The notes: generated by a model not told the origin, from the letters alone. Shown: positions 2-52,226, numbered from the stretch's first letter. The stretch: DNA of 64,000 nucleotides from Candidatus Latescibacterota bacterium (GCA_965219995.1 CBDCOX010000002.1:3264001-3328000); one strand, 5' to 3'. Made by a program: numbers and translations.

Positions 2-520
2 GCACGCCAGATTCGCCTTGTGGCTGCCCGGCAACACCACCACACCCCCGTCGCCCGGCCCCTCGTCCGCCAGCAGATATTCCACGACCGTCAGCCCGCA
101 GTAGATGCGCCCGCTCTTGAAAAAATACGCCTCGGAAAGATCCGGGCGTTCCACGCCTCCCCCGTGCAGCGTGCCCCCTTCGCAGCCCTTGTCCATGGCA
201 ATCAGTCCGGGCCCGTGGTCCAGCCGGTATCCCTTGCCCAGAATCACGTGCAGATAGGGCATGACTCGGGGATGCACGAGCATCGCCCTGAAGGGTTCAC
301 ACCACGGCCTCTCCCATGCCAGCATTCCGCCCAGATCCATCCTGTTCGACGAACCGCCAAGCGCCGGCGCGCCTATCGTGAGCGACCCCTCCCTCTCCCT
401 GAGCTGATCGGCATGGCGATCGATCGCCTCGTTGCAGCGGTCGACTTCCTCCGATGTCAGGACGTCTTTGAGCACCAGGTACCCGTTCAGATCGAATAGA
501 TATTTCTCATCGTCGGTCAT
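2..520 (-). CDS. PhyH-family Fe(II)/2OG dioxygenase, HxG type (3' end outside window)
   Basis: Hand translation from ATG at 520 (RBS GAGGAGG): MTDDEKYLFDLNGYLVLKDVL...GGTLHGGGVER...GDGGVVVLPGSHKANLAC. Not in the ORF track because it runs off the window edge. Confidence 0.88.
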   Translation of the reverse strand, partial: MTDDEKYLFDLNGYLVLKDVLTSEEVDRCNEAIDRHADQLREREGSLTIGAPALGGSSNRMDLGGMLAWERPWCEPFRAMLVHPRVMPYLHVILGKGYRLDHGPGLIAMDKGCEGGTLHGGGVERPDLSEAYFFKSGRIYCGLTVVEYLLADEGPGDGGVVVLPGSHKANLAC

Positions 521-627
521 GTCATCCCTCCTCGGGTTCCTTCAGTGAGACTTCAGCGCAGAGTACGCGCCTGTCAATTTACGCTGCCTGCGTGCGGCCA
601 GGGGTTGAAATCCCCCGGCGCTCACGA

Positions 628-1092
628 TTATTTGTACATCTGAATCGAGAACATCCCATAACCATGCCGCTCATAGAATCGAACCGTGCGCATCCAATCC
701 ACGTTATTCGAACCCACCATCGAGCGGTTGATTCCTTCCGACTCCGATCTCGACAGCAACGTCGCAACGAGCCGGTCTCCTACGCCCTTTTCGCGGTGGT
801 CGGCATGGACAAAGACCTCGTGAACGTGCAGGTATCGCTCGCCCTCGGGTTTGAATATCGAATATTTCCCGACTTTCACGACTCCCGAAGCGTACGCGAT
901 GACGACTCCCTTATGCTCACCGACGAAAAAATAGTCGCCGTCAAGCCAGGACTGAAGATGCTCATCGCCTACCATCAACGCGACATAGCCCGTAGTACAG
1001 CCTTCCTCGGCCCAGAGTTTCGACAAACCTATGACCGAACGTACATCGTCAGTTTCTGCCGGCCTGACTTTATATCCTGAAGCATCGCTCAC
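628..1092 (-). CDS. GNAT-family acetyltransferase
   Basis: Acetyl-CoA motif A VFVHADHREKGVGDRLV; C-terminal AV/TVRFYERHGY-type motif. Confidence 0.85.
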   Translation of the reverse strand: MSDASGYKVRPAETDDVRSVIGLSKLWAEEGCTTGYVALMVGDEHLQSWLDGDYFFVGEHKGVVIAYASGVVKVGKYSIFKPEGERYLHVHEVFVHADHREKGVGDRLVATLLSRSESEGINRSMVGSNNVDWMRTVRFYERHGYGMFSIQMYK

Positions 1093-1262
1093 CTTCTTCT
1101 TGTCTCCAAATCAACACACCGGGAACCGCGCATTTTCTGGCCGCACTGTCAAGCCTCCGCATCGAAGCGGCCCGGCGGCACCATGCCTTGAATCTGCAAC
1201 CCCTCGTTCGACGTGACCTTTCCCTCCGGCACCTTCGCCCCGATCGCCAATTGACATTCGCC

Positions 1263-2534: not shown

Positions 2535-3359
2535 ATGTCTATGTCCGACAACAGCGTCATCGCGAAAAACGCGCCGGCCCTGGACGACGAGACCACGCGG
2601 AAGATCGTGGAACAGTTCAACCGCGACGGGTATTATTTCATGGAGAATGTACTCGATCCCTGCGAGGTGGACGCGCTGAGAGAGGGCATGGAGCGCAAGT
2701 GGGACGATCCCCGGATCCAGGCGGACGAGGCCGGCGATCACATCCGCGGCATCAGCATGATGCGCATGTACGAATACGACCGCAATTTCCGGGATCTGAT
2801 CGAACGCGAGCCCATCGTGAGCCTGGCGGAAGCCATTCTGGGTGAGGATTGCCACATGATGTCCCAGAACGCCCTGCGTTACGAACCCGGCCAGGGCGGC
2901 GGATGGCACCTCGACGATAGGATCCACTTCCCGCTTCCCGATGGCGTTCCCCGCCATAGTCCGGATATCCCCGTCCCCTGTTTCGTGATGAACGTGATGA
3001 TCCCGCTCAGCCGGGCCGACTCCGCGGAATACGGCCTGACCCAGGTCATCCCCGGCAGCCACTATGCCGGCCGACACCCGAATGACCGCGAGAATCCGAC
3101 CTTCGAAGGCCGGAAACCGGTGTCCCTTTTTGCAAAAAAGGGCGACATATATTGGTTCCACAACCAGGTCTGGCATCGCGGTTCGCGGAACGATTCCGAC
3201 CAGGTGCGTTACGTTGGCTCAATCGTCTACAGCCAGCGGATGATCGCCCAGCGCCTCTACCCGTTCATCGATTACCGCATGCCCGACCACGTCTGGGAAG
3301 GCGCCGGCCCCCGCCTCCAGCGGCTCCTGGGCCGGCACGAAAAAGGAGCGTATGGGTAA
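2535..3359 (+). CDS. PhyH-family dioxygenase (canonical HxD...H)
   Basis: FNRDGY, WHLDD, IPGSH, VWHRG. Confidence 0.9.
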   Translation: MSMSDNSVIAKNAPALDDETTRKIVEQFNRDGYYFMENVLDPCEVDALREGMERKWDDPRIQADEAGDHIRGISMMRMYEYDRNFRDLIEREPIVSLAEAILGEDCHMMSQNALRYEPGQGGGWHLDDRIHFPLPDGVPRHSPDIPVPCFVMNVMIPLSRADSAEYGLTQVIPGSHYAGRHPNDRENPTFEGRKPVSLFAKKGDIYWFHNQVWHRGSRNDSDQVRYVGSIVYSQRMIAQRLYPFIDYRMPDHVWEGAGPRLQRLLGRHEKGAYG

Positions 3360-5596: not shown

Positions 5597-5793
5597 TCGT
5601 CCACTTCCCATCACACTTAGTGAATGGAGATTTGCGCCAGCAAAATGGTTTTACCTGCTGGTGTTTTCCGGATGGTGCTGGCCTCATCAGTACACTCCCG
5701 GGATTCGACTTGAAATATCCGTCAACGAGAAACACGACGAATTCTGCCGTCTGTCTTCGTGCATTGACGCCATAACCAGCGAAAGGAATCACC

Positions 5794-6864
5794 ATGACAC
5801 AATCCGATCCGTATGAAAAAGGTCTCGCGGCAGGTGAAGCGGCCGTGGCCGCCGCCGGAGGCAATTCGCAGGCATCGCCGAACGGCGGGCGCATGTACGT
5901 GCGCACGCAGAGCTTCGGGTCCACCGATGCCGAACTGCGCTTTCTGCAGCGCTGCGGCGTGCGCCACAAAGCCGTCGTCTTTCCGTTCCACGAAGACCGA
6001 GGCTGGGATCTCGACGAACTGGTCCAGGTACGGGAGCGCCATGAGGCGTTCGGGATCACGCTGGATATGAGTTCGCTGCCCATATACGAGCGTTTTCCCA
6101 ACATCATCTATTATGGCAGGAGCCCGGAGCGCGACCGGGAGATCGACATCGTATGCGAAATGATCCGGACCGCTTCGCGCGCGGGCATCGACTCGCTGCG
6201 ATACAACACCTGCGTGCTGCCCATCGACCGCACAGAGCCGGAAGAAGGCCGCGGCGGGTTCTACCATACCGCGTTCCGCCTGGAGAAAGTCCCGGCGGAA
6301 GACCAGGCCAGGCTGACCGAGGCCGGGCGCGTCACGGCCGACATGTACTGGGAAAGAATCGAGTATCTGCTGGAACGCATGATTCCGGTGGCGGAAGAAT
6401 TCAAGGTTCGAATGGGCAATTCCCAGGAGGACCCCGCCACACCCCCCGGCTACCGGGGCGTTGACAAGGTCCTCAATGACTTCGAGGGCATGAAGCGTTT
6501 CATCGAGATACAGCGCGGTCCGTATCACGGCTGGAACTTCTGCGTGGGCTCCGTTGCCGAAGGGCTCAAAGACCCGGCCAGTGAAATCTACCCGATCATT
6601 GAGTACTTCGGCAGCCGGAATACGATCTTCCTGGTCCACTACCGCAACATCATCGGGGGCCAGTACAGCTTCCGCGAGTCTCTGCCCGATGAAGGCGACA
6701 TGGACTTCCACCTCGTCTTGAAGGCGCTGAAGGACACGGGCTACCGTTACGGCATCGATCCGGACCACGTCCCTTGGACCGACGACGATCCGAACCGCTC
6801 CTACCAGTCCTACGCTTACTGCTTCGGGTACATCAACGCCATGATTCAGGCGGTGTACGGTTAA
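5794..6864 (+). CDS. Mannonate dehydratase (UxuA)-like protein
   Basis: IPVAEEFKVRM, NFCVGS, VHYRNI, FRESLPDEGDMD, PDHVP motifs. Confidence 0.8.
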   Translation: MTQSDPYEKGLAAGEAAVAAAGGNSQASPNGGRMYVRTQSFGSTDAELRFLQRCGVRHKAVVFPFHEDRGWDLDELVQVRERHEAFGITLDMSSLPIYERFPNIIYYGRSPERDREIDIVCEMIRTASRAGIDSLRYNTCVLPIDRTEPEEGRGGFYHTAFRLEKVPAEDQARLTEAGRVTADMYWERIEYLLERMIPVAEEFKVRMGNSQEDPATPPGYRGVDKVLNDFEGMKRFIEIQRGPYHGWNFCVGSVAEGLKDPASEIYPIIEYFGSRNTIFLVHYRNIIGGQYSFRESLPDEGDMDFHLVLKALKDTGYRYGIDPDHVPWTDDDPNRSYQSYAYCFGYINAMIQAVYG

Positions 6865-6900
6865 CACATACGCAGGCGGGCCAGGGCAAAGGACAGACAC

Positions 6901-7746
6901 ATGGAACCGGCTGAAATAGCTCACCGTATCAGGGAAAACGGCTACTGCATCATTGAGGACGTCATCCCCTCTGGGGAAGTGGGTACGATCCGCGAGCGCG
7001 TTGTGCGGGCGCAGGCCGCACAGAACGCCGCCCACCAGGCCAGGGAGAAGGCGACTCGAGCCAGGGGCCACCGCGTCGGAGCCCGCGGCGTGGGCGTGCT
7101 CAAGCAGGCGCTCAATGAAGACCAGTCGTTCGCACCGTACCTGGCCGACCCGCGGATCATCGGGACCCTCGAGATCTTCTTCGGTCCCTGGCTGCGGATC
7201 TCCTGTACCGACGCCGTGGTAAACCACCCGGGGAACGAGCGCGGCTACTGGCACGCGGACTGGCCGTTCAACCAGACGAACGCCTCCAATGTCCCCGCCC
7301 CGTACCCGGACGTGATGATGCACGCGTCGTCGCTGTGGATGCTGACCGATTTCTCCCATGCCAACGGCGGGACGCTGATGTTGCCGGGCACGCACCGGAA
7401 GAACCGCAATCCGGCGACGGGAGACCTGCCCGGCTTCGACAATGAGGCGCCGCAGCCGGACGAGATCAACGCCCAGGGCAGGGCGGGATCCGTGCTGCTC
7501 TACGACAGCCGGCAATGGCACGCGGTTGCGCCCAACCGGAGCGGAAGCCCCCGGGTGGCCCTGATCGTGCGCTACGCTCCCTGGTGGCTGAACCTGAATC
7601 CCACGCACGTAGGCACGCCGGAGCACGAGATGATGGTGGTGGAGACCGGAGGGAAGAACTACGAGATGGAACCCCTTCGCCGCGACGTATACGACGGGCT
7701 TCCGGAGGACGTGAAGCCGCTCTTCAGGCATTTCGTGGGCAAATAA
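6901..7746 (+). CDS. PhyH-family dioxygenase (canonical HxD...H)
   Basis: ENGY, WHADWP, NGGTLMLPGTH, QWHAV. Confidence 0.9.
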   Translation: MEPAEIAHRIRENGYCIIEDVIPSGEVGTIRERVVRAQAAQNAAHQAREKATRARGHRVGARGVGVLKQALNEDQSFAPYLADPRIIGTLEIFFGPWLRISCTDAVVNHPGNERGYWHADWPFNQTNASNVPAPYPDVMMHASSLWMLTDFSHANGGTLMLPGTHRKNRNPATGDLPGFDNEAPQPDEINAQGRAGSVLLYDSRQWHAVAPNRSGSPRVALIVRYAPWWLNLNPTHVGTPEHEMMVVETGGKNYEMEPLRRDVYDGLPEDVKPLFRHFVGK

Positions 7747-7767
7747 AGCCACGGTAAACCCTGACCG

Positions 7768-7822
7768 ACCCTTCGACCCTTCGGCAGGCTCAGGGCACCG
7801 CAAGCTCAGGGATCTACTCAGG
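7768..7822 (+). repeat. CCCTTCGAC..GCTCAGGG repeat cluster
   Basis: Same motif at ~28970-29070 (reverse) and ~33150-33195. Confidence 0.75.
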
Positions 7823-8016
7823 ACAACGCACACGGTGCTGGATTATGGACCGGAAACTGCTGCTTCGTCTACATCAATGGGATGATTCAGGCGGTCTATG
7901 GATGGTCCATATGCAGGATGTTCCGGCCGGCAGCGCCATATCTCGAGCAACTTGCACCTCGTCGGGAAGGGCGGGATGGAGATCAGACGCACGAACTGAA
8001 ACCGCGAGGAGGGATT

Positions 8017-11060: not shown

Positions 11061-11131
11061 AGGCCGTTCTCTGCGTTCTCCGCGGGCTCTGCGGGCAAAA
11101 AAAAACGGTACGGATTTTGGAGATCATCGCT

Positions 11132-13390
11132 ATGATCAAGCCAAGTCACGAGTGGGTACGGCGGGCGCGCACCTTTCAGATAGAGCAATACCACCCGCCC
11201 TTCTGGCCCGATATCGATTTTGACGCGAAGCAGCTCGTCGATGTCGTGCGGAAATACCACGCCAACGCTATCCGGTTCGGCAGCGCGGGCAAATGGGCGG
11301 TCTTCCCCAATGAGTTCTTTCCCCCGCACCCTCAATTAGGTGAGCGCGACCTGCTCGCCGAGACCATCGCCGAGGCCCATGCGCGGGACGTCCGCGTCAT
11401 CGGGTACATTCCCGTGGGGCACATTATTCCCGAAGACAACATGCTGATCCATCATCCGGAGTGGATGTACCGCCCCAGCCCCGAAGGCAACGCTCCTGTC
11501 CTGAGGCACCACGGCGGCGGATTTCACCGGCACGTCTGCTTCAACACACCGTACCGAGAGGCCATCTGCGCTTTCATCGCACAAGTGGTGGACCACGACG
11601 TCGACGCGATCTACACCGATTCTGCCTGTCCTTACCATTCGCACCACACCCCGCAGTCGCCCTTGTGCTACTGCGACTATTGCCTCGAGAAGTTCGAGAG
11701 GCAATTCGGCTGCCCAATGCCGTATGCACCCGATCCGCACAGCCTGCCTCGGGAAGACCGGGAGATGCTGGAAGAGTGGAGTCTGCAGTACGGCAGGATC
11801 GTCGGCGATGTCTTTCTCGAATTCGCCGCTGCGACGCGAAAGAAGAAGGACATCCCCGTGCTGACGCACGGCCTGGGTGTGGGCGACTGGCCCGAACGCA
11901 GGATCGTGGAGGTGCACGATGGATTCCTCTACGAGGCCGGGGGCGACTTCCTTCATCGGCTAGAGGCGGCCAGTCTGGCCGAGTCGTCGGGTTGGACCAT
12001 GTGGCAATACGTCGGCGCCTTGACGGGCTGGTCGCGGGCGCAGTGCTTCGGCATGGAACTCGTCGAGGAGGCGGCAGCCAGCTTTGCTTCCGGAGGGGGC
12101 GTCCTGGTGGCGTGCGGCGTGAACCTTTGGCTGTCGCCTCCCCACAAAGCCAATCGTGAGCTGGCGGAGCTCCTTGAGATCCTGGAGAGGAATGAATCAC
12201 TCTTCGAAGATCTCCACCCGTCACCGTTTGTTGCGATTCCATTTGTTTTGCCGGTGCGGGTGTATGAGATGCTCGAGCGGTTGCGGTTCCGCGCCGAGCC
12301 CCTGGTGATGCGCGATCGTCCGCGCGATGTCATCGGCCAGTCCAGGCAGGACCTCGCCGACCGCCCGGGGGAGCTTGAGGCCCCGCTCTCCGAGGCGGGC
12401 TATCTCGTACGCACGCCCCCGCAGCAATCCTGCCGTCGCGGGGCCTTCTCGGCCATGCTGGCCAACCATTTGCCGACATCGGTGATCGAGGAGCGGGTTC
12501 TCTCCGATCCAGCGGCGTTGGCAAAGTATCCTGTTCTGTTTCTGCCCAACGTCGGCCATCTCACGCGGGAGGAAGTCGAGGGCATCACGGAATATGTGAA
12601 TGCGGGCGGGCGGCTCCTGGCGACGTACCGGACGAGCCTGTACGGTGCCGAGCCCGATGAGATGCGCGACAACTTCGCCCTGGCGGACCTTCTGGGCGTG
12701 GACCGCGTGGACCCGAACCCCGACCAATTCGCTGATTACGAACAACACCTCTGGGCCGCCGGGACGTTCGACACGTACGGCTGCTGCGTTCCGGGTCAAT
12801 GGCTGGCCGAGGGGTGCTCGCATGAGCTGTGGCCGCTCAATCGGTTCGAGTTCGTCCAGGCGCGGCCGGGAACCGACGTGGTGGCGAACATCGTCTTCGG
12901 CGGGCGCGAGGACGACGCTCTGTGTCCCGCCGTCACCTGCCGGACGGTTGGCAAGGGCCGCGTCGTCTATCTGGCCGCGCCGGTGGAGGAGCTTCATTTC
13001 GAATATCGCCTGCTGGTGATCCGCGATCTTCTGGGCGCCGTGGTGGATTGGCTATACCCGGAGGGCCGGCCTCTGATGACCGACGGCCCGAACCAACTCG
13101 TGATGATTCCGAATGAGAAACCGGGAAGCCAGGTGTTGTTTCTGATCAATCACACCGGCGAGCGCGTCGAGCATCTGCCGGAGATCTGGCCGCGCTTCAG
13201 CCCACAGTTTGACTATGTGACCACGATACCCGAAGTGAACCTGCGCTGGCAGCTCACGGAGCGGGGCACTCCTCGTCGCGTGTGGGACGTTTGCACGGGA
13301 GATGACCTGGAGGTCACGTTCGACGGAAACCACCTGGAAACCATATTAACGAACATCGGACAGTACGCGATGATTGCCGCTGAGTTCTGA
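11132..13390 (+). CDS. Putative glycoside hydrolase (TIM barrel plus beta-galactosidase trimerisation-like domain)
   Basis: RDLLAE.IAEAH, HPEW, CFNTPYR, CYCDYC, YPVLFLPN, EYVNAGGRLLATY, GKGRVVY. Confidence 0.7.
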   Translation: MIKPSHEWVRRARTFQIEQYHPPFWPDIDFDAKQLVDVVRKYHANAIRFGSAGKWAVFPNEFFPPHPQLGERDLLAETIAEAHARDVRVIGYIPVGHIIPEDNMLIHHPEWMYRPSPEGNAPVLRHHGGGFHRHVCFNTPYREAICAFIAQVVDHDVDAIYTDSACPYHSHHTPQSPLCYCDYCLEKFERQFGCPMPYAPDPHSLPREDREMLEEWSLQYGRIVGDVFLEFAAATRKKKDIPVLTHGLGVGDWPERRIVEVHDGFLYEAGGDFLHRLEAASLAESSGWTMWQYVGALTGWSRAQCFGMELVEEAAASFASGGGVLVACGVNLWLSPPHKANRELAELLEILERNESLFEDLHPSPFVAIPFVLPVRVYEMLERLRFRAEPLVMRDRPRDVIGQSRQDLADRPGELEAPLSEAGYLVRTPPQQSCRRGAFSAMLANHLPTSVIEERVLSDPAALAKYPVLFLPNVGHLTREEVEGITEYVNAGGRLLATYRTSLYGAEPDEMRDNFALADLLGVDRVDPNPDQFADYEQHLWAAGTFDTYGCCVPGQWLAEGCSHELWPLNRFEFVQARPGTDVVANIVFGGREDDALCPAVTCRTVGKGRVVYLAAPVEELHFEYRLLVIRDLLGAVVDWLYPEGRPLMTDGPNQLVMIPNEKPGSQVLFLINHTGERVEHLPEIWPRFSPQFDYVTTIPEVNLRWQLTERGTPRRVWDVCTGDDLEVTFDGNHLETILTNIGQYAMIAAEF

Positions 13391-13498: not shown

Positions 13499-15079
13499 AT
13501 GACCGAAACGGAAAAATACCTCTTCAATGTTCCACGGAGCGGGTCCAGGGCGCCGATGACCGAGGAGCAGAGGTGGGCCTTCGAGCTCGACGGCTATATC
13601 CTCCTCCCGAGCCTGCTCGGCGCGCCGGCAGCGGCGCACGCCACACCCGCCGCTCTGGCTGAGCATCCGGACTTGCTGGCTGCGATTGATCAGCTGGCTG
13701 GCGGGGAGTTACCGCTGTGGCATCGCGCTGCGTACGACGGTACTGAAGGGAAGGAACAGGAGTTCCACACGATCAAGTTTGAGCTGGACCGGCCGTCGCG
13801 CCGCCTGACCAAAGAGGGGCAGTGGGCCAATGATCTGACGGTGGATGAGCAGCGCCGGCTGGGCTACGACACGACCAGCCGGCCCGACCGGGTGTGCGTC
13901 TGGGGGCTGCGCGCGCTGTGGGCCGTGGGCGACAGCTGCGTGGTGGTGTGCCCTGCGTCGCACAAAGCCAACGTCCAGCCGCCCCCGAGCATGGCGCGCG
14001 CCGAGGAGCTCGGGGCGACGGAGCGCGTGCAGCTCCGCGCTGGCGACTGTCTGCTCGCGGTTGCCACCACGCTGGTCGGCGCCGCCCCAGGCTCCTCGCT
14101 GCAGGAGTGCATCTTTTGCGACGACTCCCGCTACCCTGGGGGGGCCATCGGCCACGGCGCGACGGGTGTGGACAGCTGGCTGGATGAGCTCACGCCGGCG
14201 CGCCGAGCGCTGGTGGCCGGCCCACCACGCGGCCTCGGCCACGACGGCCAGCCCCTCAGCAACGAGCAGCAGCTGGCGCCGTCGCTGCTGGACGTCAACA
14301 CGCGGCCTGACGCTCCGAACCACGAGGAGGTCTGGTTCTGGGACCTGAGAGGCTACCTGGTGCTGCCTGGCGTGATGGACCGTGAGTGGTTAGCGCAGTG
14401 CAATGCAGCGCTCGACTCGCCCTTCGCCGAAGCCAACCGTCGGCCGGTGAGCTTTTCGAGCAGTGTCGTGGGCGAGTACCCGGACTACGAGGGCTGTTCG
14501 CAGACTATTGCCCCGGCCCCGGGCACGCGCTGCACCGAAGAGCGCGTCTCGCAGACCTGGACCCATCCCCCACCCTTCAGCGACGGCTTTCGTCGCATGA
14601 TCGACAATCCGCTCGTGAACGCGCGGCTGAAGTGGATGATTGACCCGGGCTTCGTCATGACGGCGTGCTACACAATCGTCAGCCGCGACGGGGCGGCCGG
14701 CCAGCCTCTACATGGCGGCTGGTTTTACGGCGCCGGCCCTAACTATCATTTCCGGGACGGACAGCCTCGTACGGAGCAGGTGAACATCGGCTGGCTGCTC
14801 CAGGACGTCGAGACGGCGACGGGCGACGGCGGACTGATGTTGGTCCCCGGAAGCCACAAAGCGCGGCTACCGCTGCCGCGCCCGAAGCAAACCAGCTGCG
14901 ACCTGCCGCAGGTCAAGCATATGCAGGGCGTTGCCGGGACGGTGATCATGTACCCAGGCACGACGACGCACGGCGTGCGCAGCTGGCGCAACCCCAATCG
15001 CGAACGGCGCTTCGTCAACACCAAAGCGGGACCCAATATACGGCGGCCGGAGCACGGGGCGGCGCAACCGAGCCCCTGA
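13499..15079 (+). CDS. Tandem two-domain PhyH-family protein (degenerate N-domain, HxG C-domain)
   Basis: FELDGY...CPASHK (domain 1); FWDLRGY...PLHGGW...GDGGLMLVPGSHK...TTHG (domain 2). Confidence 0.8.
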   Translation: MTETEKYLFNVPRSGSRAPMTEEQRWAFELDGYILLPSLLGAPAAAHATPAALAEHPDLLAAIDQLAGGELPLWHRAAYDGTEGKEQEFHTIKFELDRPSRRLTKEGQWANDLTVDEQRRLGYDTTSRPDRVCVWGLRALWAVGDSCVVVCPASHKANVQPPPSMARAEELGATERVQLRAGDCLLAVATTLVGAAPGSSLQECIFCDDSRYPGGAIGHGATGVDSWLDELTPARRALVAGPPRGLGHDGQPLSNEQQLAPSLLDVNTRPDAPNHEEVWFWDLRGYLVLPGVMDREWLAQCNAALDSPFAEANRRPVSFSSSVVGEYPDYEGCSQTIAPAPGTRCTEERVSQTWTHPPPFSDGFRRMIDNPLVNARLKWMIDPGFVMTACYTIVSRDGAAGQPLHGGWFYGAGPNYHFRDGQPRTEQVNIGWLLQDVETATGDGGLMLVPGSHKARLPLPRPKQTSCDLPQVKHMQGVAGTVIMYPGTTTHGVRSWRNPNRERRFVNTKAGPNIRRPEHGAAQPSP

Positions 15080-15125: not shown

Positions 15126-15962
15126 GTGATACAAGTACAGCCCACCAAAACGCGATTCGTTGATATTCATCACCTGAACTGGGATCTGAAGTGGTCCATC
15201 CAGTTTCCGGAAGTCATCACGTCGATGAATGGTGTGACGATGATGTGGCAGAAGATCTGCCCTCAATGGACCAGGACCGGAGATAACGCGTGGGCATACG
15301 AATGGCAAACGACGCCTGAGTATATCGAGAAGCAACTGGCATACCGTCAAACGGATCCCTCAGGGAAGGTGATTCGACACAACTTCATAACAGGTCTTGT
15401 TCTCAGAGCAGCGTTGTCCGGACGCGAGGACAGCGTCGAATTGACGTTGACCCTCACGAATCAGTCATCCGCGAAATTCTATGACGTCGCTTCCGATGGT
15501 GGATGTCTCCAGGCAAAGTCATCCGATTTCATCGATCAGGATGAAGTCAGACGATCGTACATCCTGGTCAAAGGCAAGCCGGAAAACATGGGCGATCTTC
15601 ACAGAACGGTGGATATTCGGACCGCGTATCATGCGGATCTTACGGACTACGAAAAAGAGTGGGTAAACAGTACCGAGTGGTTCTGGGGAAGAAGCAACAC
15701 GGCCATAGATCAACCGGCCATCCTGGGCGCCGTTTCTCACGACAGGTCCAGGGCAGTGGCGTTGGGATATGAGTGCGCAACTTCGGCTTTGCAGAACGCT
15801 GACGGGCATCATTGCCTGCATAGCAGACCTCATTTTGGTGATATCGAACCGGGGCAGTCAGTGACCCGCAAAGGCTGCATCCTGTTCGGCAGCGAGTTCC
15901 CTTCGCTGGCAAAGCGACTTGGCAAACAACTCACCAGACCGGACACGTCAAAACCTGAATAA
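15126..15962 (+). CDS. Hypothetical protein
   Basis: 278-aa ORF filling the gap; no recognisable motif. Confidence 0.6.
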   Translation: MIQVQPTKTRFVDIHHLNWDLKWSIQFPEVITSMNGVTMMWQKICPQWTRTGDNAWAYEWQTTPEYIEKQLAYRQTDPSGKVIRHNFITGLVLRAALSGREDSVELTLTLTNQSSAKFYDVASDGGCLQAKSSDFIDQDEVRRSYILVKGKPENMGDLHRTVDIRTAYHADLTDYEKEWVNSTEWFWGRSNTAIDQPAILGAVSHDRSRAVALGYECATSALQNADGHHCLHSRPHFGDIEPGQSVTRKGCILFGSEFPSLAKRLGKQLTRPDTSKPE

Positions 15963-16547: not shown

Positions 16548-16844
16548 CAGACCATATGTTTTTCCTCGTGGATTTGGGAAACGGTGACACAAACGCGTGC
16601 TTCGGCCGCGTGGTTGGTTATGACCCTGATTTCCGCCAGGAAATCGGGGATTTTTTTTAAGGCGGGGAGAGGTGAGACGGGAGAGGTGAGAGGAAAACCC
16701 TGCTCCACCGGATCACCGAATAAAGCGAGATGTGAATCGTACAAGGGGCAGGTTACGGTTTGCGCCATGTAATTGGCTACGAATGACCTGAAGTCTCTCC
16801 TGGAGCTATTGAGGGTCGAATGCGGATCGTTGGAGGCTGATTTA

Positions 16845-17969
16845 ATGTTGGATTTCAGATTCTGGACACGATTGCTCTGTTGCATCGGCATGTGCGGGAC
16901 GGCGGTACCCGTTAGCGCGGAAGTGTCATTGCGATACGCCGAGGGGTTTCGCGTTGACTATTTCGACGGGTACAAGGTCGCGACCGTCCTGGCGCCGGGG
17001 ACGGGCGCGAGGGATACGCTTCGGTACGTCCTGGTATCGCGCGACGGGAAATCGCCGGATGGTTATGCAGGGGCGCCGAGGATACGGATTCCCGTGAGGT
17101 CGCTGATCACCACGTCCACAACGCACCTGCCGCATATCGAAAAACTGGACGAGATTCAATGCCTCGTTGCGGTGGACAACGTCAAATTCGTCAACTCGAA
17201 GGCCGTCAGACAGCGGTTCGCGGCAGGGAAAATAGAGGAAGTCGGCAGGGGAAGGTCGATCGATTTGGAGCGGGTTCTCGTACTCCAGCCCGAACTCGTC
17301 ATCATCGACGCGCCGTCGCAGGACAACGCATTCCATTCGCTTCAGCAGGCGGGCGTGGCCGCCGTGGTGAATGCCGCCTATGCCGAACCGACGCTGCTCG
17401 GGCGCGTGGAGTGGCTCAAATTCATGGGCGCCTTTTTCAACAAGGAAGCAATGGCCGCCGCGCAATTCGACAGTATCGCGGCCAGGTACGAGGTGCTCAG
17501 ATCGTTGACCGGGAATGTGCCGCGCCAAGAGAAGCCGACCGTTTTCGTGGGATCCCTGTGGCGCGGGACGTGGTTTATGTCCGGCGGCAAGTCCTATCCC
17601 TCGCAACTGCTCGAGGACGCCGGCGCGAATTACCTGTGGGGAGACAATGAATCGCGACGGAGTTTGTCGCTGGACTTCGAAGCGGTTTACGAAATAGCGC
17701 ACAATGGCGATTTCTGGATCACCATGAGGAACGAATGGCTATCCATAGACAACGTCGTCGCGGAAGATGAACGATACGGGCAATTCAAGGCGGTCAGAAC
17801 GGGGAACGTCTTCAACGCCAACGCGAGGCTCAACGCAAATGGCGGCAACGATTATTGGGAAACCGGCCTGATCGAGCCGGACGTTCTTCTGGCCGACATC
17901 ATTAAGATCCTGCATCCCGACCTGCTGCACGATCACCAGCTCAAATATTATCGAAAGCTGGATCCATAG
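16845..17969 (+). CDS. Corrinoid ABC transporter substrate-binding protein (BtuF-like)
   Basis: Signal peptide; EPTLLGRVEWLKF, LEDAGANYLW, GNDYWE...PDVLLADI..ILHP; TGGAGG RBS. Confidence 0.85.
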   Translation: MLDFRFWTRLLCCIGMCGTAVPVSAEVSLRYAEGFRVDYFDGYKVATVLAPGTGARDTLRYVLVSRDGKSPDGYAGAPRIRIPVRSLITTSTTHLPHIEKLDEIQCLVAVDNVKFVNSKAVRQRFAAGKIEEVGRGRSIDLERVLVLQPELVIIDAPSQDNAFHSLQQAGVAAVVNAAYAEPTLLGRVEWLKFMGAFFNKEAMAAAQFDSIAARYEVLRSLTGNVPRQEKPTVFVGSLWRGTWFMSGGKSYPSQLLEDAGANYLWGDNESRRSLSLDFEAVYEIAHNGDFWITMRNEWLSIDNVVAEDERYGQFKAVRTGNVFNANARLNANGGNDYWETGLIEPDVLLADIIKILHPDLLHDHQLKYYRKLDP

Positions 17970-17972
17970 CCT

Positions 17973-20168: not shown

Positions 20169-20301
20169 GAAACCGGGATCCGGCGAGCGCAGGACCGGAA
20201 GGCGCATCCCCCGCTTTTTGTCCGAAGCCTTCTTAACCTTGATTCGTGAAGAATAACACCAGGGTAGCACTCCTTTACACATTTCCCGACGGGAGGTTTG
20301 A

Positions 20302-21543: not shown

Positions 21544-21669
21544 GAGTCGGTGAGTCACGTAAGACGTGAGACGATAGATGAATTCGGGGAGATGTGGATG
21601 TTGAGTTTGAAGTTGATTTTTGTCGTTGCTTCAAGCTGACTGCTGAACGCTGAGAGCTGATAGCTTCTT

Positions 21670-23765: not shown

Positions 23766-23831
23766 TGTCCCGCCGCTATCTTCATCTGCCGCACTCAACC
23801 GAACCAAAGAGCATGTTACCAGGAGAGGGCG

Positions 23832-25832: not shown

Positions 25833-25833
25833 T

Positions 25834-28777: not shown

Positions 28778-28854
28778 CTTTGATTCACCGGGTGGGTTCA
28801 AACGTTGATGGAAGGGATAAAACCAATAGAGCGCCAGAAATCAGGCGGCAGCAA

Positions 28855-29070
28855 CCTATAGCGGCGTCGCGTTGTTCAGCCGCAACCGAATAGATTGAAG
28901 TGGACGTCTGGGCCCTTTTGAAAGTCGATCACTCCCCCCGTGAGGGGGAGTCGCAGAAGCCGAGCCGTTCCCTGAGCCGCTCCCTGAGCATGCGGTGCCC
29001 TGAGCTTGTCGAAGGGTCGAAGGGTCGGCGAAGGGTAGCGAAGCGCGGGCGTTTCGACAAGCTCAACGAC
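28855..29070. repeat. Left inverted-repeat module flanking mcrBC
   Basis: ATCACTCCCCCCGTGAGGGGGAGTCGCAGAAGCCGAGCCG plus CCTGAGC/GTCGAAGGG repeats; reverse complement of 33125-33480. Confidence 0.8.
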
Positions 29071-29142
29071 CACGCTTCGGTAAGCCGTGCCGGAAAGCTT
29101 GACGCATAAGGTTCTTTCTGCATGTGTTACAAACCCAAACGA

Positions 29143-30399: not shown

Positions 30400-30401
30400 G
30401 G

Positions 30402-33002: not shown

Positions 33003-33124
33003 CTTGGTATGTCCTTCCCTTTGGAGTATTGGAACAAACTGACGATTAGCCCTTACAGTAAGATCTCTTCGCAAAATGCATGTATGATCGGTCATGCACC
33101 TTGCGTTCGGTACAACGCTGAAAT

Positions 33125-33480
33125 CCCCCCTCCGCATCAGCCGTCGCCGGCCCTTCGACAACCCTTCGACAAGCTCAGGACAGCGGCTCAGGGATCGGCT
33201 CGGCTTCTGCGACGCCCCTTCAACAGTCCGTTGAAATAGTCGCTCTGCAGGCGAGGCCGAGTCATTGTGGCCGAAGACAAGGCGCGCGACCGACGCGAAT
33301 CCCTGGATTCGGGGAGGGAGCGCAACGCTGTAATTCGGTCACAAGGGCCGGACGCAGACCGGATGGACTCTTTCAACGGGCTGTCACGGGGGGAGTGATT
33401 AAACCGTCGAACGGGCGCGCGCCCTTACTTCCAGCTATTTGGTTGCTGTTGAGTACAGCGTCGCCGCGCTAGCCTGCTTG
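33125..33480. repeat. Right inverted-repeat module flanking mcrBC (interrupted by a MITE)
   Basis: CGGCTCGGCTTCTGCGAC.CCCCT[MITE]TCACGGGGGGAGTGAT...ACTTCCAGCTATTTGGTTGC matches the reverse complement of the left module. Confidence 0.8.
33224..33383. mobile_element. 160-bp MITE
   Basis: TIRs CAGTCCGTTGAAATAGTC / GACTCTTTCAACGGGCTG; flanked by TCAA and TCAC; absent from the left repeat copy. Confidence 0.8.
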
Positions 33481-46575: not shown

Positions 46576-47832
46576 TCAGTCCCAAACCGGCCAATCCTGA
46601 TCCTGCAAGCGCCTCCACAATCCGTCGAACGCCTCGCTTCCGTCGTCCTCCCACTCGTCCAGGCGGACGCCGGGCGCAAAGGATTCGTCCACGCCCTCTT
46701 TCATCAGCCGCTCCGCCTGCTGCAGATTCCGATAGTAGTGTCTGATGCCGCCCGGAAACGTCACCACGGACAGGTGCCTGGGCCAATCCACCGCGGGCGT
46801 CTCCCGGTATTTCGCAACGGCATCCTCGTCCAGCGTGACGCCCAGCCCGGGCGCCTCCGGGACCCTCATGAAGCCGCGCTGAATCGGATGCGCGTCCACA
46901 ATCAGATCGTCTTCGTACGAGTGGCTGGCCGTCACGCCCGGCAACGTCGCTGTCGGCATGACAGCGCCAAGTTGAAGCGCGAACGCCGTTGTGATCCCCG
47001 TGCCCACGTACTGCAGCAGGATCGGCGTATTCGCCGCGGCGAACGTCCACCCCGCCGCCAGCGCATCCCGCACGCACTCGTGGCTGCACAGCGCGCCTTC
47101 GAAGTCGCCGGCGCGAAGTCCCGTCCACGGCCCGGAGGGCTGCCGGGACGCGGCCTCGGAAAGCACGCGCACACCGTGCAGATAGAAGGGGACGCGGATC
47201 TCCCGGTGCAGCCTGCGCCAGCCGTCGATATCGTACGCGAAGATCGGCTCCTCGACGCCCTTTACGACGGGGATCTTCTCCAGCGCCCTCAGCACCGGAA
47301 GCGCCTTCTCGACGCATATCAACGCGCCGTTGAAGTCGAACTCCACGCGGAAATCCGGCGGCGCCGCCTCCTGAATCGCCTGCGCGCATTCCACCACGTC
47401 GTAAAACGCGCGGGCCTTGCACTTCAGCCCCCGGAACCCGCGATCCGCCGCAACCCGGACCTCCGCCGCCGTATCCTCGGGCGACATGCTGGGCATCCAC
47501 CATCCCATGGCCACCCATTGACGCGCCTGCTGCCCCATCACCTTCCACGCGGGCAGTCCCAGGTGCTTGCCCATGAGGTCGTAACACGCCATATCCAGAT
47601 TGAACCGCCCGCGTCCCATGACGTGGTCGAAGGGATCCGTCCCGATATAAGCGTCCAGCGCCCCCCGATCCAGCGGCGGTCCGGGATTCTCACCCAGCCC
47701 CTCCAGTCCGGTATCCGTATGAAACCGGTATACCGTCACTTCCTCCGTCATCGCGAAGTGATGGTACGCCTTCCGGATTCGCGCTTCATAGGGAACCCTA
47801 AGGGGAATCACTTCGACGTCCGTGATCTTCAT
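46576..47832 (-). CDS. Mandelate racemase/muconate lactonising enzyme (enolase superfamily)
   Basis: DTGLEGLGE, MACYDLMGK.LGLP, KCK, DFNG, EEP, PEAPGLGVTLDE. Confidence 0.88.
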   Translation of the reverse strand: MKITDVEVIPLRVPYEARIRKAYHHFAMTEEVTVYRFHTDTGLEGLGENPGPPLDRGALDAYIGTDPFDHVMGRGRFNLDMACYDLMGKHLGLPAWKVMGQQARQWVAMGWWMPSMSPEDTAAEVRVAADRGFRGLKCKARAFYDVVECAQAIQEAAPPDFRVEFDFNGALICVEKALPVLRALEKIPVVKGVEEPIFAYDIDGWRRLHREIRVPFYLHGVRVLSEAASRQPSGPWTGLRAGDFEGALCSHECVRDALAAGWTFAAANTPILLQYVGTGITTAFALQLGAVMPTATLPGVTASHSYEDDLIVDAHPIQRGFMRVPEAPGLGVTLDEDAVAKYRETPAVDWPRHLSVVTFPGGIRHYYRNLQQAERLMKEGVDESFAPGVRLDEWEDDGSEAFDGLWRRLQDQDWPVWD

Positions 47833-47927: not shown

Positions 47928-48058
47928 GCGGGCAGAGGTAAGACGGAAGACAGGAGAGATTGCCTGCCTTGTGGGGTTTCTTCTCGTGCCAAAGGCAACA
48001 AGGAATAAAATATCGGGCAAGGGCTTCTTCTCACGTCTCCCCTCTCCCGTCTCCCCGC
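47928..48058. repeat. 131-bp heptamer-armed hairpin element
   Basis: GCGGGCAGAGGTAAGACGGAAGA...TGCCAAAGGCA...TCTCCCGTCTCCCCGC. Confidence 0.78.
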
Positions 48059-48112
48059 ATTTCTTCTACCCTCTCCCGTCTACCCTCTTACCGCCTCTCG
48101 AAAGGTGGTCCC

Positions 48113-49051
48113 ATGGCCCAGCGTCTTGTCTACTTCAACGGCAGCTACGTTTCCGAGCAGGACGCGCGGATCTCCATTTTCGATTCGGCCCTCATGTTCG
48201 GGGACATGGTATTTGAAATGACCCGGTCATTCAAGCAAAAACCCTACCGCTTGCGAGACCACCTGGACCGTCTCTATGCCTCGATGCAGTACGCCCGGAT
48301 CGACTGCGGGCTGAACATCGAACAGATGGAAGCCGCCACCGGCGAGACCATTGAACGGAATCTGCCCGCACTGGAAGGCCTGGACTACCAGATCATGCAC
48401 AACGTCACGCGGGGCGCCCTTCCCCTGTACGACACGCTTGTCCGGGAAGGCCTGCGTCCAATCGTCACCATCAACGTCATCCCGCTCGTGCGGCACATTG
48501 GCGGCGGGGCGCACACCTACGAAGAAGGGGCGCATTTCGTCGTCACGCCCCAGCAGTCCGTACCCGCGCGCTATATCGATCCCAAAGCGAAGAACCGCAG
48601 CCGGATCTACTATCAGCTCGCCCAACTGCAGGCGCAGCAGATGGAAAAGGGCGCCAACGCCCTGCTCACCGACGAACACGGCTTCATCACCGAAGGCACC
48701 GGAAGCAATGTGTTCATCGTCCGACACGGCGAAATCCGAACGCCGAAACCCCACGATATCCTGCGCGGCGTCTCAAGACAGGCCTGCATGGAGCTTGCAG
48801 AAGCGCTGAACATCCCCGTCAGGGAGGCCGATATCGGACCCTACGACGTGCGAGACGCCGATGAGGCGTGGTACACCGCGACCACGATATGCATGGTACC
48901 CATCACCCGCTTCGACTTCCAACCGGTCGGCTCGGGCCGTCCGGGACCCGTCTATCGACGGCTGATCGAAGCATGGTCCAATGAGGTCGGCCTGGACATC
49001 CCCGCCCAGGCCAGGGAATACGCCGAGCGGGCGAAGACCTGGACGCCCTGA
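48113..49051 (+). CDS. Aminotransferase class IV (BCAT/D-amino acid type)
   Basis: ISIFDSALMFGDMVFE, HLDRL, AKNRSR, ITEGTGSNVF, ILRGVSR, ADEAW. Confidence 0.9.
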   Translation: MAQRLVYFNGSYVSEQDARISIFDSALMFGDMVFEMTRSFKQKPYRLRDHLDRLYASMQYARIDCGLNIEQMEAATGETIERNLPALEGLDYQIMHNVTRGALPLYDTLVREGLRPIVTINVIPLVRHIGGGAHTYEEGAHFVVTPQQSVPARYIDPKAKNRSRIYYQLAQLQAQQMEKGANALLTDEHGFITEGTGSNVFIVRHGEIRTPKPHDILRGVSRQACMELAEALNIPVREADIGPYDVRDADEAWYTATTICMVPITRFDFQPVGSGRPGPVYRRLIEAWSNEVGLDIPAQAREYAERAKTWTP

Positions 49052-49124
49052 TCGCCGGCAGCAGAGCCGTACGGCGGCGATCTACCCCACCCATCGTCCA
49101 ACCCCATTACATGGAGCGACAATT

Positions 49125-50111
49125 ATGCCCTCCTACCGAGCGGCCCTCATCGGCTGCGGCAACATATCCGGCCGCCACGCACGAGCCTACGTCGACCAGG
49201 GCAACGTCGAGCTTGTTGCCGCCTGCGACATCAACCCGGTGACTCTGAACAAGACCTGCGACGAATTGAACATTCCCGGCCGCTACGCTTCTCACCAGGA
49301 CCTCTTCGAGCGCGAGTCCGACGTCGATCTCGTCAGCGTATGCACCTACCCGAAGGTCCACGCCGAGCAAACCGTCGCCGCGGCAAACGCCGGCGCAAAG
49401 GGCGTACTGTGCGAAAAGCCCATGTGTCTGAGTCTGGACGAAGCCGACGCCATGATCCACGCCTGCCGGCAGAACAATACGCGGCTGGTTATTGCCCACC
49501 GGCACCGCCAGAGCCCCAACTTCAACAAGGCGCGAAACCTGATTGACGAAGGCGCCATTGGAGAACCCCGACTGGTCTGGAGCTATCTCACCAGCTGCCT
49601 GGTGGACAACGGCACCCATATCGTCGACATGATGCGCTACCTTCTGGGCGATCCGGAGGCGGACTGGGCGATGGGGCAGGCGTCCCGCAAACGCGACACC
49701 CTCTATCAGGGCTCGCCCGCGGAAGAATCCAGTATGGGGCTTGTCGCGTTCAGGACCGGGACCCGCGCCTTCCTCGAAATGGGTGAAAAGACGCAAACGG
49801 ACGGGTTCCGCTTTCGCGTTCTGGGAAGCGAAGGAACGATAGAAGCCGCCCTCGACGAGGTGATCCTCACCGACAAAAACGGCATCGCACACTTTCGCGA
49901 GGCACCCAAACCCGGCTTCTTCGAGCAGACCGGGGAGATGATCGCGTGGATGGAAGGCGGACCCGAGCACCGGAGTTCAGCCGAACAGGGCCGGGCCGCA
50001 ACCGAACTCCTTATGGCGATGCACGAATCCGCCCGGATCGGTGAGCTGATCGAGCTGCCTCTCAAGATTGGGTTCGATCCGATGAAGAAGAGAACGGAAA
50101 AAAGCGGGTAG
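49125..50111 (+). CDS. Gfo/Idh/MocA oxidoreductase
   Basis: ALIGCGNIS, LCEKPM, DNGTH..D. Confidence 0.9.
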   Translation: MPSYRAALIGCGNISGRHARAYVDQGNVELVAACDINPVTLNKTCDELNIPGRYASHQDLFERESDVDLVSVCTYPKVHAEQTVAAANAGAKGVLCEKPMCLSLDEADAMIHACRQNNTRLVIAHRHRQSPNFNKARNLIDEGAIGEPRLVWSYLTSCLVDNGTHIVDMMRYLLGDPEADWAMGQASRKRDTLYQGSPAEESSMGLVAFRTGTRAFLEMGEKTQTDGFRFRVLGSEGTIEAALDEVILTDKNGIAHFREAPKPGFFEQTGEMIAWMEGGPEHRSSAEQGRAATELLMAMHESARIGELIELPLKIGFDPMKKRTEKSG

Positions 50112-50478
50112 ACGTAAGACGTGAGACGTGAGATGATCACCCCGCATCGCTCGGACATCGATATGGACTGGCGATATCAATTCGTCGATGCGCGGACCTC
50201 TCCTCGCGCCCCCCACCCCTGGGGAGACGTTAGACGTGAGACGGGAGAAGAAATGAGTGCCTGTTCGGTATCATCTCTTGCCGCAGGCATAAGGGAAAAA
50301 CCAATCTGGCGAGGATGTCATCTACCGTCTACCGTCTTGCCGCTTTTTTCTACCGTCTACCGTCTTGCGTCTCACCGGTTTTATTGCCCCGTGCGGGTTC
50401 ATCTCTTGCCGACGGCATTAAGGACGAGCCAATTGGGCAAGGACGTCTTCTACCGTCTCACGTCTACCCTCTTACCGC
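50104..50478. repeat. Cluster of heptamer-armed elements between convergent genes
   Basis: AGACGTG/AGACGGG arms and TCTACCG/TCTCACG counter-arms; both flanking stop codons lie in element termini. Confidence 0.8.
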
Positions 50479-52226
50479 CTTGCGGGTGCGCCCTTTGGGG
50501 TCGCTCCGGTGTAAAGCCCGCCCCGGCTCCGGTCGTAAATCACTTCGATCTTCCCGTTTTCCGATACCAGCCGCGGCACGTTGCTGCTCTTCTCGTCGCG
50601 GTCGGGCCCCCGCATCACCGCCAGTTGCGCCTCGCCCATCCCCTCCAGAAGATCGCCCCATCGCTCCTCCGGGGTCGCCATTGCCGCCCCGCCGTTGAAG
50701 TGCCGCGAAGAGTACCGCGTGAGGATGACGCGGCGTGGGACGTCGCTCTTCCACGCCAGTGCGCCGTGCGCCTGCGGGCCGTCCATAAAGAAGATGACGT
50801 CGCCGGCCTTTGTCAGCGGATGCGTCACCAGACCCATGTCCTCGTCGCAGGTCCACACCCCCCTGGGGATTCCGTACTGGGACTTGTGGCTTCCCGGCAC
50901 ACAGGCAAACCCACCGTCGTGTTCGGTCACGTCGCGCAATTGCCAGGCCACGCCGACGGACGGTCCCCCCAGGGCATAGCTCCGGCCGTTCTGGAAGGTA
51001 TAGTTACGAGACGGACTCAACGGCTCGTTGCCGCCATGCAGAAAGTGTCCTGCGCCACCCCTGGGTGTACAGATCGCCTCGAAGCCTGTACACCGGAATC
51101 CCTTCCCTCCCATCCAGGTGAGGCGGTGCACCACCGCCGGGTGGGCGAGCATCTTCCGGAACGGTTCGCAGAAGGGCCTGGGCAGTTCAAGCAGGCCGGT
51201 CAAGGTGGGCCGCCCGGTTCCCGCCAGACTTTTGGACCCCATGGCCAGATCCACGCTTTCAACCACGATGCGTTCCGTAAACCGGTCGATCGCCTCGTTC
51301 GCCAGCGCCAGGTCTTCCGGCGTCATCACGTTTCTGAGGACGAGGTGACCGCACAGGTCCCAGAAATAGAACTCCTTTTCGTCGATGTTCGAATCCGGGT
51401 TCCTGATATAGATGGAGGGGTGGGACAGGTCGGGTTCCGGGTCCACCCGGCAGGTCTCACCATCCGAACTGAGCGTTGGAGGCGGGTCGGTATCTCTGTA
51501 TCCGGGTTTGTGCAGCATCACGCGTTGCTCCGGCGTCAATTCCGCCATCCATTCCGGCTGCTCTTCCTTCCGCGTCTTCGGTCCTGTGCCGACGGACTGA
51601 ACGGCCGCGTGTCCCGCGTATCTGTACATGAGCAGCCGTTGTGGGAGCTCCTTCGTACCGGAAGGTACGCCCTGAAGCAGGGTCGCCGCGCACAGCAGCA
51701 GGTCGCCTGCCTTCAGCGCCGGCTGAACGGTCAATCCCAGGTCGTCCTTCCCGGTCAGCACGTCTTCGGGGGTTTCCACGTTGCTTTTGTGGCTGCACGG
51801 TACCAGCGAGAGCCCGCCGTCTCCCGTACTCGTGTCGGACAGCGCCCAGATGGCGTGTATCCCCTGGCAGTGCCGGCGGCCGTTGAGGATATAGTAGGCC
51901 CGTCCGGCATCCATCGGTTCATTGCCGCCAATCAGGCCGCCGGCAGCCCCATCCGTTTCACCGATCAACTCCGGTTCGCGGTCCAGCCGAAAACCGTATC
52001 CGATGAGCTGGTTCAGGTACCCCACCACCAAGGGATGGACCATCAGTTCCCGGAACGGCTCCCGCTGCGGCGCAGGCCACCCGAGCATGCCGTTCGCGCG
52101 GCCCTCCCGGTCGAGTGCCCTGTTGCAGGCCTCCACCTCCCGGGGCGTCAGAACACCCCGCAAAACGAGGTATCCCGAGATATCGAAACAGTAGTTCTCC
52201 TCGTGGCTCATCTCCGCCCGGTCCAT
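50472..52226 (-). CDS. Tandem two-domain PhyH-family protein (N-domain lacks metal His, C-domain HxG)
   Basis: FDISGY...GLIGGNEP...PCSHK...LLQG (domain 1); FWDLCGH...FLHGGNEP...PGSHK...QAHG (domain 2). Confidence 0.88.
   Translation of the reverse strand: MDRAEMSHEENYCFDISGYLVLRGVLTPREVEACNRALDREGRANGMLGWPAPQREPFRELMVHPLVVGYLNQLIGYGFRLDREPELIGETDGAAGGLIGGNEPMDAGRAYYILNGRRHCQGIHAIWALSDTSTGDGGLSLVPCSHKSNVETPEDVLTGKDDLGLTVQPALKAGDLLLCAATLLQGVPSGTKELPQRLLMYRYAGHAAVQSVGTGPKTRKEEQPEWMAELTPEQRVMLHKPGYRDTDPPPTLSSDGETCRVDPEPDLSHPSIYIRNPDSNIDEKEFYFWDLCGHLVLRNVMTPEDLALANEAIDRFTERIVVESVDLAMGSKSLAGTGRPTLTGLLELPRPFCEPFRKMLAHPAVVHRLTWMGGKGFRCTGFEAICTPRGGAGHFLHGGNEPLSPSRNYTFQNGRSYALGGPSVGVAWQLRDVTEHDGGFACVPGSHKSQYGIPRGVWTCDEDMGLVTHPLTKAGDVIFFMDGPQAHGALAWKSDVPRRVILTRYSSRHFNGGAAMATPEERWGDLLEGMGEAQLAVMRGPDRDEKSSNVPRLVSENGKIEVIYDRSRGGLYTGATPKGAPARR

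Follow-up and report, generated by a model that had tools for sequence, protein, structure and literature searches.

Relocated and absent carboxylates at the predicted iron site of H-G-G PhyH proteins in a Candidatus Latescibacterota genome

Three PhyH-family genes of a Candidatus Latescibacterota bacterium carry H-G-G in place of the canonical proximal motif H-x-D. They lie at positions 2-520 (-), 13499-15079 (+) and 50472-52226 (-) of the stretch of DNA analysed here (the window: 64,000 nucleotides, C2:3264001-3328000 of a 5.44 Mb genome), and their products are referred to as P0283, P0004 and P0005. Here we propose that all three are HygX-like Fe(II)/2-oxoglutarate (2OG) oxygenases, in which the acid of the iron site has been relocated in two cases and the third works with two His ligands, a reading to which we assign a probability of about 0.7. 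In P0283 (E-x3-H) and in the C-terminal domain of P0005 (D-x4-H), the iron ligands would be, as in HygX, both His and the relocated acid, with 2OG held by an Arg pair 11-12 residues past the distal His, and both enzymes would oxidise C-H bonds independently of halide. The C-terminal domain of P0004 would be an active oxygenase in the manner of AspH. The substrates would most likely be imported sugars, sugar acids or oligosaccharides.

The H-x-G/A motif is commonly used to pick out Fe/2OG halogenases, and within one large family it misfires because the carboxylate has merely moved. Most of the halogenase false positives would be weeded out by also asking whether an acid precedes the distal His by 4-5 residues. 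The HygX-like family can be sorted into three iron-site classes, of which one is still without any carboxylate. The signature of this carboxylate-free class, Gly or Ala in the acid column together with Asn at the position of HygX Lys137, provides a target for the study of two-His chemistry. In Latescibacterota the family is very large. No function has been assigned since 2014 to the PhyH expansion of sponge symbionts (Kamke et al., PMC3909097).

Proximal motifs and relocated acids

The PhyH family PF05721 is matched by five open reading frames (ORFs) of the window, which are the sole matches within its genome coordinates. Two of them are canonical PhyH oxygenases on the + strand, at 2535-3359 (WHLD ... 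PGSHY ... WHRG; PF05721 E 4e-21) and at 6901-7746 (WHAD ... PGTHR ... WHAV; E 1.3e-22), and score 76.7 and 81.6 bits. The three H-G-G genes score 28.9, 46.6 and 66.2 bits, with a cut-off at 22 bits, and read TLHGG at 155-169 (-), PLHGG at 14708-14722 (+) and FLHGG at 51027-51041 (-). When the genome's 78 PhyH ORFs are aligned with MAFFT, the proximal and distal His and PGSH fall into register. The His of H-G-G shares a column with the His of H-x-D, and an RR pair stands at +11/+12 from the distal His in all three H-G-G genes.

The initial annotation, made from the sequence of the window alone, had set three H-G-G genes against two H-x-D genes, a division borne out by the ORFs, the Pfam matches and the shared MAFFT column. 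Its suggested check, whether Gly stands at the carboxylate position, was made through alignment and secondary structure, with Gly at His+2 where the canonical ORFs have their acid. The distal His, which it had described as kept, is seen as TTTHG in 13499-15079 and as QAHG in 50472-52226, and for the latter gene the ATG at 52226 given there is the likely start, the consensus of the relatives opening with MDRE. We add that 13499-15079 and 50472-52226 encode two-domain proteins in which H-G-G lies in the C-terminal domain, and that the N-terminal PhyH-like domains of both are without either His. The motif is not a chance occurrence, since the residue at His+2 is an acid in none of 118 relatives of P0005 (A40/G33/S23/N20/C2) and is Gly or Ser in 9 of 9 relatives of P0004 whose sequences reach this position.

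In P0005 the distal motif reads FFMDGPQAHG, in which an Asp precedes the distal His by five residues. The catalytic domain (50472-51410, -) contains H399-G-G401 (51027-51041), PGSHK (50880-50897), M-D484-G-P-Q-A-H489 (50763-50786) and R500 R501 (within 50724-50738). Its 118 relatives are 54-90 % identical and, where a source is named, carry the labels Poribacteria, Latescibacteria or Planctomycetota; H399, D484, H489, R500 and R501 are each present in 118/118, and the residue at His+1 varies (D90/G16/S7/N4/T1). The D484 column is the Glu column of the family in both the MAFFT alignment and the HMMER profile, and the extra residue follows D484. In the AlphaFold model of P0005 (pLDDT 88.4, pTM 0.88), strand 479-484 ends in D484 and strand 489-492 opens with H489, so that both residues flank a single hairpin. 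The degenerate N-terminal domain (51411-52226, -) has LIGGNE (51918-51935) at the place of H-x-G and TLLQG (51669-51683) at the place of the distal His; the relatives have V/A/T/E/S/I at the proximal position and Q98/R11/H8/F1 at the distal one, and the domain itself aligns to HygX. This two-domain type is found in 107 of 151 sampled genomes of the phylum at E <= 1e-40, with 11 matches per genome at most, often in tandem.

The gene at 2-520 (-) is truncated by the window edge, so that only its 5' part lies inside, 173 codons out of 263. It encodes a HygX-type PhyH oxygenase with a single domain, with TLHGG/LHGGG at 155-169 and PGSHK at 17-31. Completed from the genome, it encodes the 263 amino acids of P0283, and its distal motif IFAETLTHG (E-x3-H) and RR pair lie just beyond the edge. 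HMMER aligns residues 2-228 of P0283 to HygX (4xc9) at E 9.7e-10 and sets IFAETLTHG on LLNEALMHG of HygX, with E on E and H on H.

HygX of Streptomyces hygroscopicus (PDB 4XC9/4XCA/4XCB/4ZPI) is the closest solved structure to all three H-G-G genes, by sequence and by fold, and for P0005 and P0283 it is the sole confident PDB match. A profile built from 54 family members finds HygX at E 5e-19, followed by EasH, EctD, SnoN, TlxJ and SptF; the halogenase CytC3 (3gja) ranks 26th of 27 PDB matches, at E 5.9e-4. Foldseek places HygX chains at ranks 1-10 for the models of P0005 and P0004 (E 3e-13, target-normalised TM 0.64-0.71), and there is no halogenase in the listed top 50 matches of either model. 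According to the excerpted parts of a 2026 review (PMC13374393), HygX has the motif H-X-G ... E-X3-H with a relocated acid, its Lys137 fills the gap near the iron, and it makes the orthoester of hygromycin B by oxidative cyclisation rather than by halogenation.

The proteins described here share with HygX the PhyH-type double-stranded beta-helix, LHGG in place of H-x-D, the GSHKAN motif, an Arg about 11 residues past the distal His and, in gene 2-520, an acid in the hairpin ahead of that His (FAETLTHG, against NEALMHG in HygX). HygX acts on a carbohydrate and the gene context here is one of carbohydrates. The differences are an identity of only about 17-22 %, a catabolic context in place of an aminoglycoside cluster, a longer loop after LHGG in HygX, the D-x4-H spacing with one extra residue in 50472-52226, the lack of any acid in 13499-15079 and, in two of the three genes, a fused second domain that is dead. 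The last arrangement recalls the TlxI-TlxJ heterodimer (PDB 7VBQ), in which a PhyH-fold chain pairs with a paralogous partner, and both Tlx chains are among the family-profile and fold matches. Here, unlike in TlxI-TlxJ, both halves are in one polypeptide, a His-less domain being fused to a catalytic-type one. One of the Tlx chains may be catalytically impaired. The His-less N-terminal domains would give each two-domain protein the form of an internal pseudo-dimer.

The strongest argument for a relocated acid is covariation across the genome. PF05721 has 80 matches in 78 distinct ORFs, of which 60 read H-x-D/E and 18 have no acid at His+2. An acid occupies the column of the HygX Glu in 17 of these 18 (14 at -4 and three as an inserted D-G-x-x-x-H) and in one of the 60 canonical ORFs; 13 more canonical ORFs have an Asp one column earlier. 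The single exception among the 18 non-canonical paralogs is 13499-15079. The covariation between canonical and relocated acid gives a Fisher p of 5e-15, a value that overstates independence because the paralogs are kin. In the excerpted account of Kamke (2014, PMC3909097), PhyH is the most abundant Pfam domain in Poribacteria, with more than 1.9 % of genes and most functions unassigned, and the 78 PhyH ORFs found here match the expansion described there.

Two variants of the site were also seen. The paralog at C2:2123856-2124617 (-) has H-M-H at the proximal motif together with FTEALTHG, and may have a three-His-plus-Glu site. In the representative P0227, a His replaces the relocated Glu (IFPHALTHG).

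An acid-less clade marked by Asn

The exception, P0004, is a two-domain protein. Its degenerate N-terminal domain (13499-14281, +) keeps PASHKAN (13952-13972) and has TTLVGA (14066-14083) at the place of the distal His. Its C-terminal catalytic-type domain (14282-15079, +) contains H405-G-G407 (14708-14722), N429 (within 14780-14794), PGSHK (14846-14863), Y-P-G-T-T-T-H491 (14951-14974) and R503 R504 (within 15002-15016). The distal stretch VIMYPGTTTHG has the length of the E-x3-H type, with Pro-Gly replacing Ala-Glu. Neither the sequence, nor the relatives, nor the alignment provides an acid at the canonical or the relocated position of this domain. Only 10 near-length relatives were found, of which 9 cover the proximal site (HGG in 8/9, HSG in 1/9) and 8 cover the distal site; the distal motif of these 8 is MY[PTA][GA][TS]TTHG, and none of the 8 has D or E within six residues before the distal His. 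The stretch HGGWFYGAG of P0004 is without the +4/+5 Glu found in HygX, P0283 and P0005. Relatives with as little as about 40 % identity still have H405, H491, PGSHK and R503/R504. The AlphaFold model of P0004 (pLDDT 84.0, pTM 0.86) shows strand 482-486 (VIMYP), a four-residue loop GTTT and strand 491-494.

Used as the query against 1.84 billion representatives, the C-terminal domain of P0004 gave 579 matches at E <= 0.001, of which the best 150 were inspected. Among these 150, 75 domains have both His and a non-acid residue at His+2: 41 have E or D at -4, four have the inserted Asp and 30 have neither. The acid-less members are a real and diverse group. Asn stands at P0004 position 429 in 25 of the 30 acid-less and in 1 of the 45 acid-bearing representatives (p = 6e-14), and the five acid-less domains without Asn resemble the E-x3-H scaffold with the E changed to G, H, A or S. 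The Asn429 column falls on HygX Lys137 in the profile alignment.

Twenty loci, drawn from other families of the class, were fetched on the strength of their similarity to the C-terminal domain of P0004. The equivalent of Asn429 is present in 19 of 19 acid-less C-terminal domains from these loci; in the three acid-bearing domains that retain both His, this column holds T, T and V. In the alignment of acid-less domains (A4), all 21 sequences have H405, N429 and H491, and R503 is at least 90 % conserved, a level at which R504 is not listed. In a FastTree tree of 77 domains, the branches of the 39 acid-less Asn domains are mixed with those of the 8 inserted-Asp domains, and the E-x3-H class (28) stands apart from both. 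A profile search with A4 returned 28 proteins, most of them known already and the remainder close relatives of P0004 or fragments.

Two other residues of P0004 were considered as ligands and set aside. Glu426, ten residues before a conserved Asp, was rejected as a general substitute, being present in 13 of the 30 acid-less representatives; it is also common in the acid-bearing P0005 family (98/118) and variable within the P0004 clade. Tyr485, which adjoins the acid column at a position where the P0005 family has Met or Ala, is not general to the acid-less class and was dropped.

In many acid-less two-domain relatives (L047-L055 and others) the proximal motif is H-G-Q, which puts Gln in the place of the canonical acid; the hairpin is shortened by one residue (FFGGVAHG), and the motif VEQ[VT]NVAWAL is present. 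As to the gene itself, genomes of another family of the class (G081, G099, G111, G125, G128, G132, G149) contain copies of 13499-15079 with 88-95 % identity, and the best match in the window's own order outside its genus is at about 41 %. This distribution points to horizontal transfer or to mis-binned contigs.

Competing readings of the iron site

For P0004, the likeliest reading is that its C-terminal domain is an active two-His oxygenase whose site would be completed by Asn, water or substrate; its two-His site stands at the level of sequence, and a carboxylate from a distant part of the chain may still reach the iron. Excerpts of one source (PMC6817910) describe AspH, the human aspartate/asparagine beta-hydroxylase, as a natural two-His hydroxylase, report that no halogenase activity was seen with it when chloride was present, and describe the D201G variant of FIH as catalytically viable with two His. 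The likeness is one of mechanism alone, in that only two protein His ligands are expected in the P0004 domain; AspH belongs to another branch of the 2OG oxygenase superfamily and was absent from our PDB searches by sequence and by family profile.

Several points weigh against HygX-like oxygenases as the common reading of the three genes. The acid of P0005 precedes its His by five residues and that of HygX by four. HygX Lys137 is V, G or N in the proteins studied here. Pairwise HMMER shifts the LHGG of HygX by about five residues, because the loop after LHGG is longer in HygX; the LHGG motifs were equated through the H-X-G statement of the review and the family alignment. The Asn429 column is Asn in 9 of the 78 genome paralogs, some of them canonical, including 2535-3359, so that Asn429 need not be a metal ligand and may serve 2OG or substrate binding instead. 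Halide binding at the P0004 site is still compatible with the evidence. Finally, the metal ligation proposed for all three genes is deduced from alignment, invariance and hairpin topology.

An alternative that we consider unlikely, itself a form of the two-His oxygenase reading, is that in the acid-less clade, 13499-15079 included, the third ligand comes from the substrate, as a sugar-acid carboxylate or a sulfate, and the site forms on the right substrate only. The neighbours of the acid-less genes are in keeping with this. We examined 40 neighbour ORFs from 15 of the 20 fetched loci, and these include BNR_2, MR_MLE (4 ORFs, 3 loci), GFO/IDH/MocA (3), xylose-isomerase-type TIM barrels (2), GHL10 (2), GH5, Amidohydro_2 (2) and further PhyH genes (5). 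At 3 of the 15 loci (L054, L059 and L062, four ORFs) an acid-less two-domain gene has enolase-superfamily acid-sugar dehydratases for neighbours, and GFO/IDH/MocA, xylose-isomerase-type TIM barrel, BNR and GHL10 genes recur. However, like neighbours surround the acid-bearing 50472-52226, so that context does not separate acid-less from acid-bearing genes, and the strict Asn signature points to an adaptation on the side of the protein.

It is similarly doubtful that 13499-15079 and the acid-less clade are Fe/2OG halogenases, in which halide would occupy the vacant iron positions and radical rebound would transfer it to a sugar-like substrate. The lack of an acid at His+2 and before the distal His in all 8 covering relatives speaks for this reading, as do the conservation of both His and of the Arg pair for 2OG, the aromatic, acid-free stretch HGGWFYGAG after the proximal His, and a clade that is both conserved and diversified, with 39 acid-less Asn domains among the 77 on the tree. 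Against it, none of the three H-G-G proteins matches TIGR01762, the family of SyrB2-type halogenases, at E <= 0.1; the sole match to this model is the canonical 6901-7746, with 21.8 bits against a cut-off of 226. The far weaker profile match to CytC3 than to HygX and the absence of halogenases from the listed top 50 folds weigh in the same direction. SyrB2 and CytC3 (H-x-A ... H) resemble the proteins studied here in their broader PhyH-like fold and in having a small residue where the carboxylate would be, but two of our three genes have a compensating acid and none has a context of carrier proteins or nonribosomal peptide synthetases (NRPS). The neighbours of 13499-15079 and of its clade are glycosidase-like and sugar-acid genes, with neither a carrier protein nor a biosynthetic cluster, and no NRPS, polyketide synthase (PKS) or carrier protein is found among the 40 neighbour ORFs of the 15 fetched loci.

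Moreover, a two-His site alone is insufficient for a halogenase, as is shown by AspH, a two-His hydroxylase for which no halogenase activity was seen with chloride. Searches with HXA/G motifs are prone to false positives, as stated in the excerpted text of a halogenase-mining preprint (PMC12871659). The literature searched (PhyH/Poribacteria, HygX, Latescibacter and HxG mining) contains no report of an Fe/2OG halogenase for this family, and a preprint on sponge halogenases leaves ketoglutarate, non-heme and PhyH all unmentioned.

More speculative, and again improbable in our estimate, is the idea that the acid-less Asn clade represents a new iron site in the 2OG oxygenase superfamily. This could be a His-His-Asn site or, more boldly, an anion-dependent two-His site that would halogenate free sugars or sugar acids catabolically. 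No carbohydrate halogenase of the catabolic free-sugar kind was found in the literature and databases searched.

We regard it as very unlikely that the C-terminal domain of 13499-15079, like the N-terminal ones, has a binding or scaffold role without catalysis. Both acid positions are lost, and these proteins do contain dead PhyH-like domains, but the N-terminal domains have lost both His, whereas the C-terminal domain keeps H405, H491, PGSHK and R503/R504 across its relatives, and H405, N429 and H491 are invariant throughout A4. Least tenable of all is a halogenase function for all three H-G-G genes. The H-x-G motif is real and conserved, but two of them have a relocated acid, invariant in 118/118 relatives in one and matching the HygX acid in the other. 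A compensating acid is found in 17 of 18 non-canonical paralogs, and HygX itself is H-x-G yet an oxidative cyclase.

The initial annotation had proposed such a family of halogenases. By sequence, this fails for 2-520 and 50472-52226, in which a relocated carboxylate is placed to complete the triad; the annotation had itself named a carboxylate from elsewhere, such as the Asp of FMDG, as evidence against its proposal, and that Asp is found in 50472-52226 and a Glu (E-x3-H) in 2-520. For 13499-15079 the two-His site stands and a halogenase is improbable. Its fallback, that these are non-standard oxygenases under a generic PhyH label, holds and agrees with the HygX-like reading preferred here.

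Gene neighbourhood and the rest of the window

P0004 is preceded directly, after a gap of 108 bases, by a putative glycosidase of the GHL6/GH42M type (11117-13390, +) and followed, after 46 bases, by a 278-amino-acid protein without family match (15126-15962, +). Near P0005 are an enolase-superfamily acid-sugar dehydratase (46576-47832, -), a class IV aminotransferase (47960-49051, +) and a GFO/IDH/MocA sugar dehydrogenase (48981-50111, +), with a second GFO/IDH/MocA sugar dehydrogenase on the other flank (53015-53977, +); a heparinase II/III-like lyase and a Kelch mutarotase-like protein are also close by. This sugar-catabolic context argues against a biosynthetic role. The remark in the initial annotation that no NRPS or PKS genes adjoin the PhyH genes agrees with our scan of the 47 ORFs of the window and 12 upstream ORFs, which contain none, and an NCBIfam scan of the five PhyH proteins and 16 neighbour ORFs gave nothing above the curated cut-offs and matched the three H-G-G proteins to no halogenase model. 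PhyH enzymes related to PHYHD1, one of them of Poribacteria source, demethylate 2'-O-methyl nucleosides according to an excerpted report (PMC12709175), which makes oxidative removal of sugar substituents plausible for part of the family.

Two long antisense ORFs, at 5722-7833 (-, 703 amino acids) and 50121-52277 (+, 718 amino acids), overlie real genes and match no family; they are not genes and are typical of G+C-rich DNA. Elsewhere the window contains a cluster for cobinamide/B12 uptake and salvage (16773-28221), with a periplasmic binding protein, a TonB-dependent receptor, CbiZ, CobD/CbiB, an ATP-binding cassette (ABC) ATPase and a FecCD permease, and a Cache-domain protein that ends in a FlgD-Ig/type IX secretion sorting domain (23832-25421). 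Two MacB-type ABC exporters (805 and 787 amino acids), with an ABC ATPase, an HlyD-type adaptor and an extracytoplasmic function (ECF) sigma factor between them, occupy 54060-63548. The G+C content is lowest at the McrBC-type restriction genes (29143-33161), at 0.508 in the bin 28001-32000 and 0.546 in the next, with the other bins at 0.546-0.623, and this stretch is probably an acquired island.

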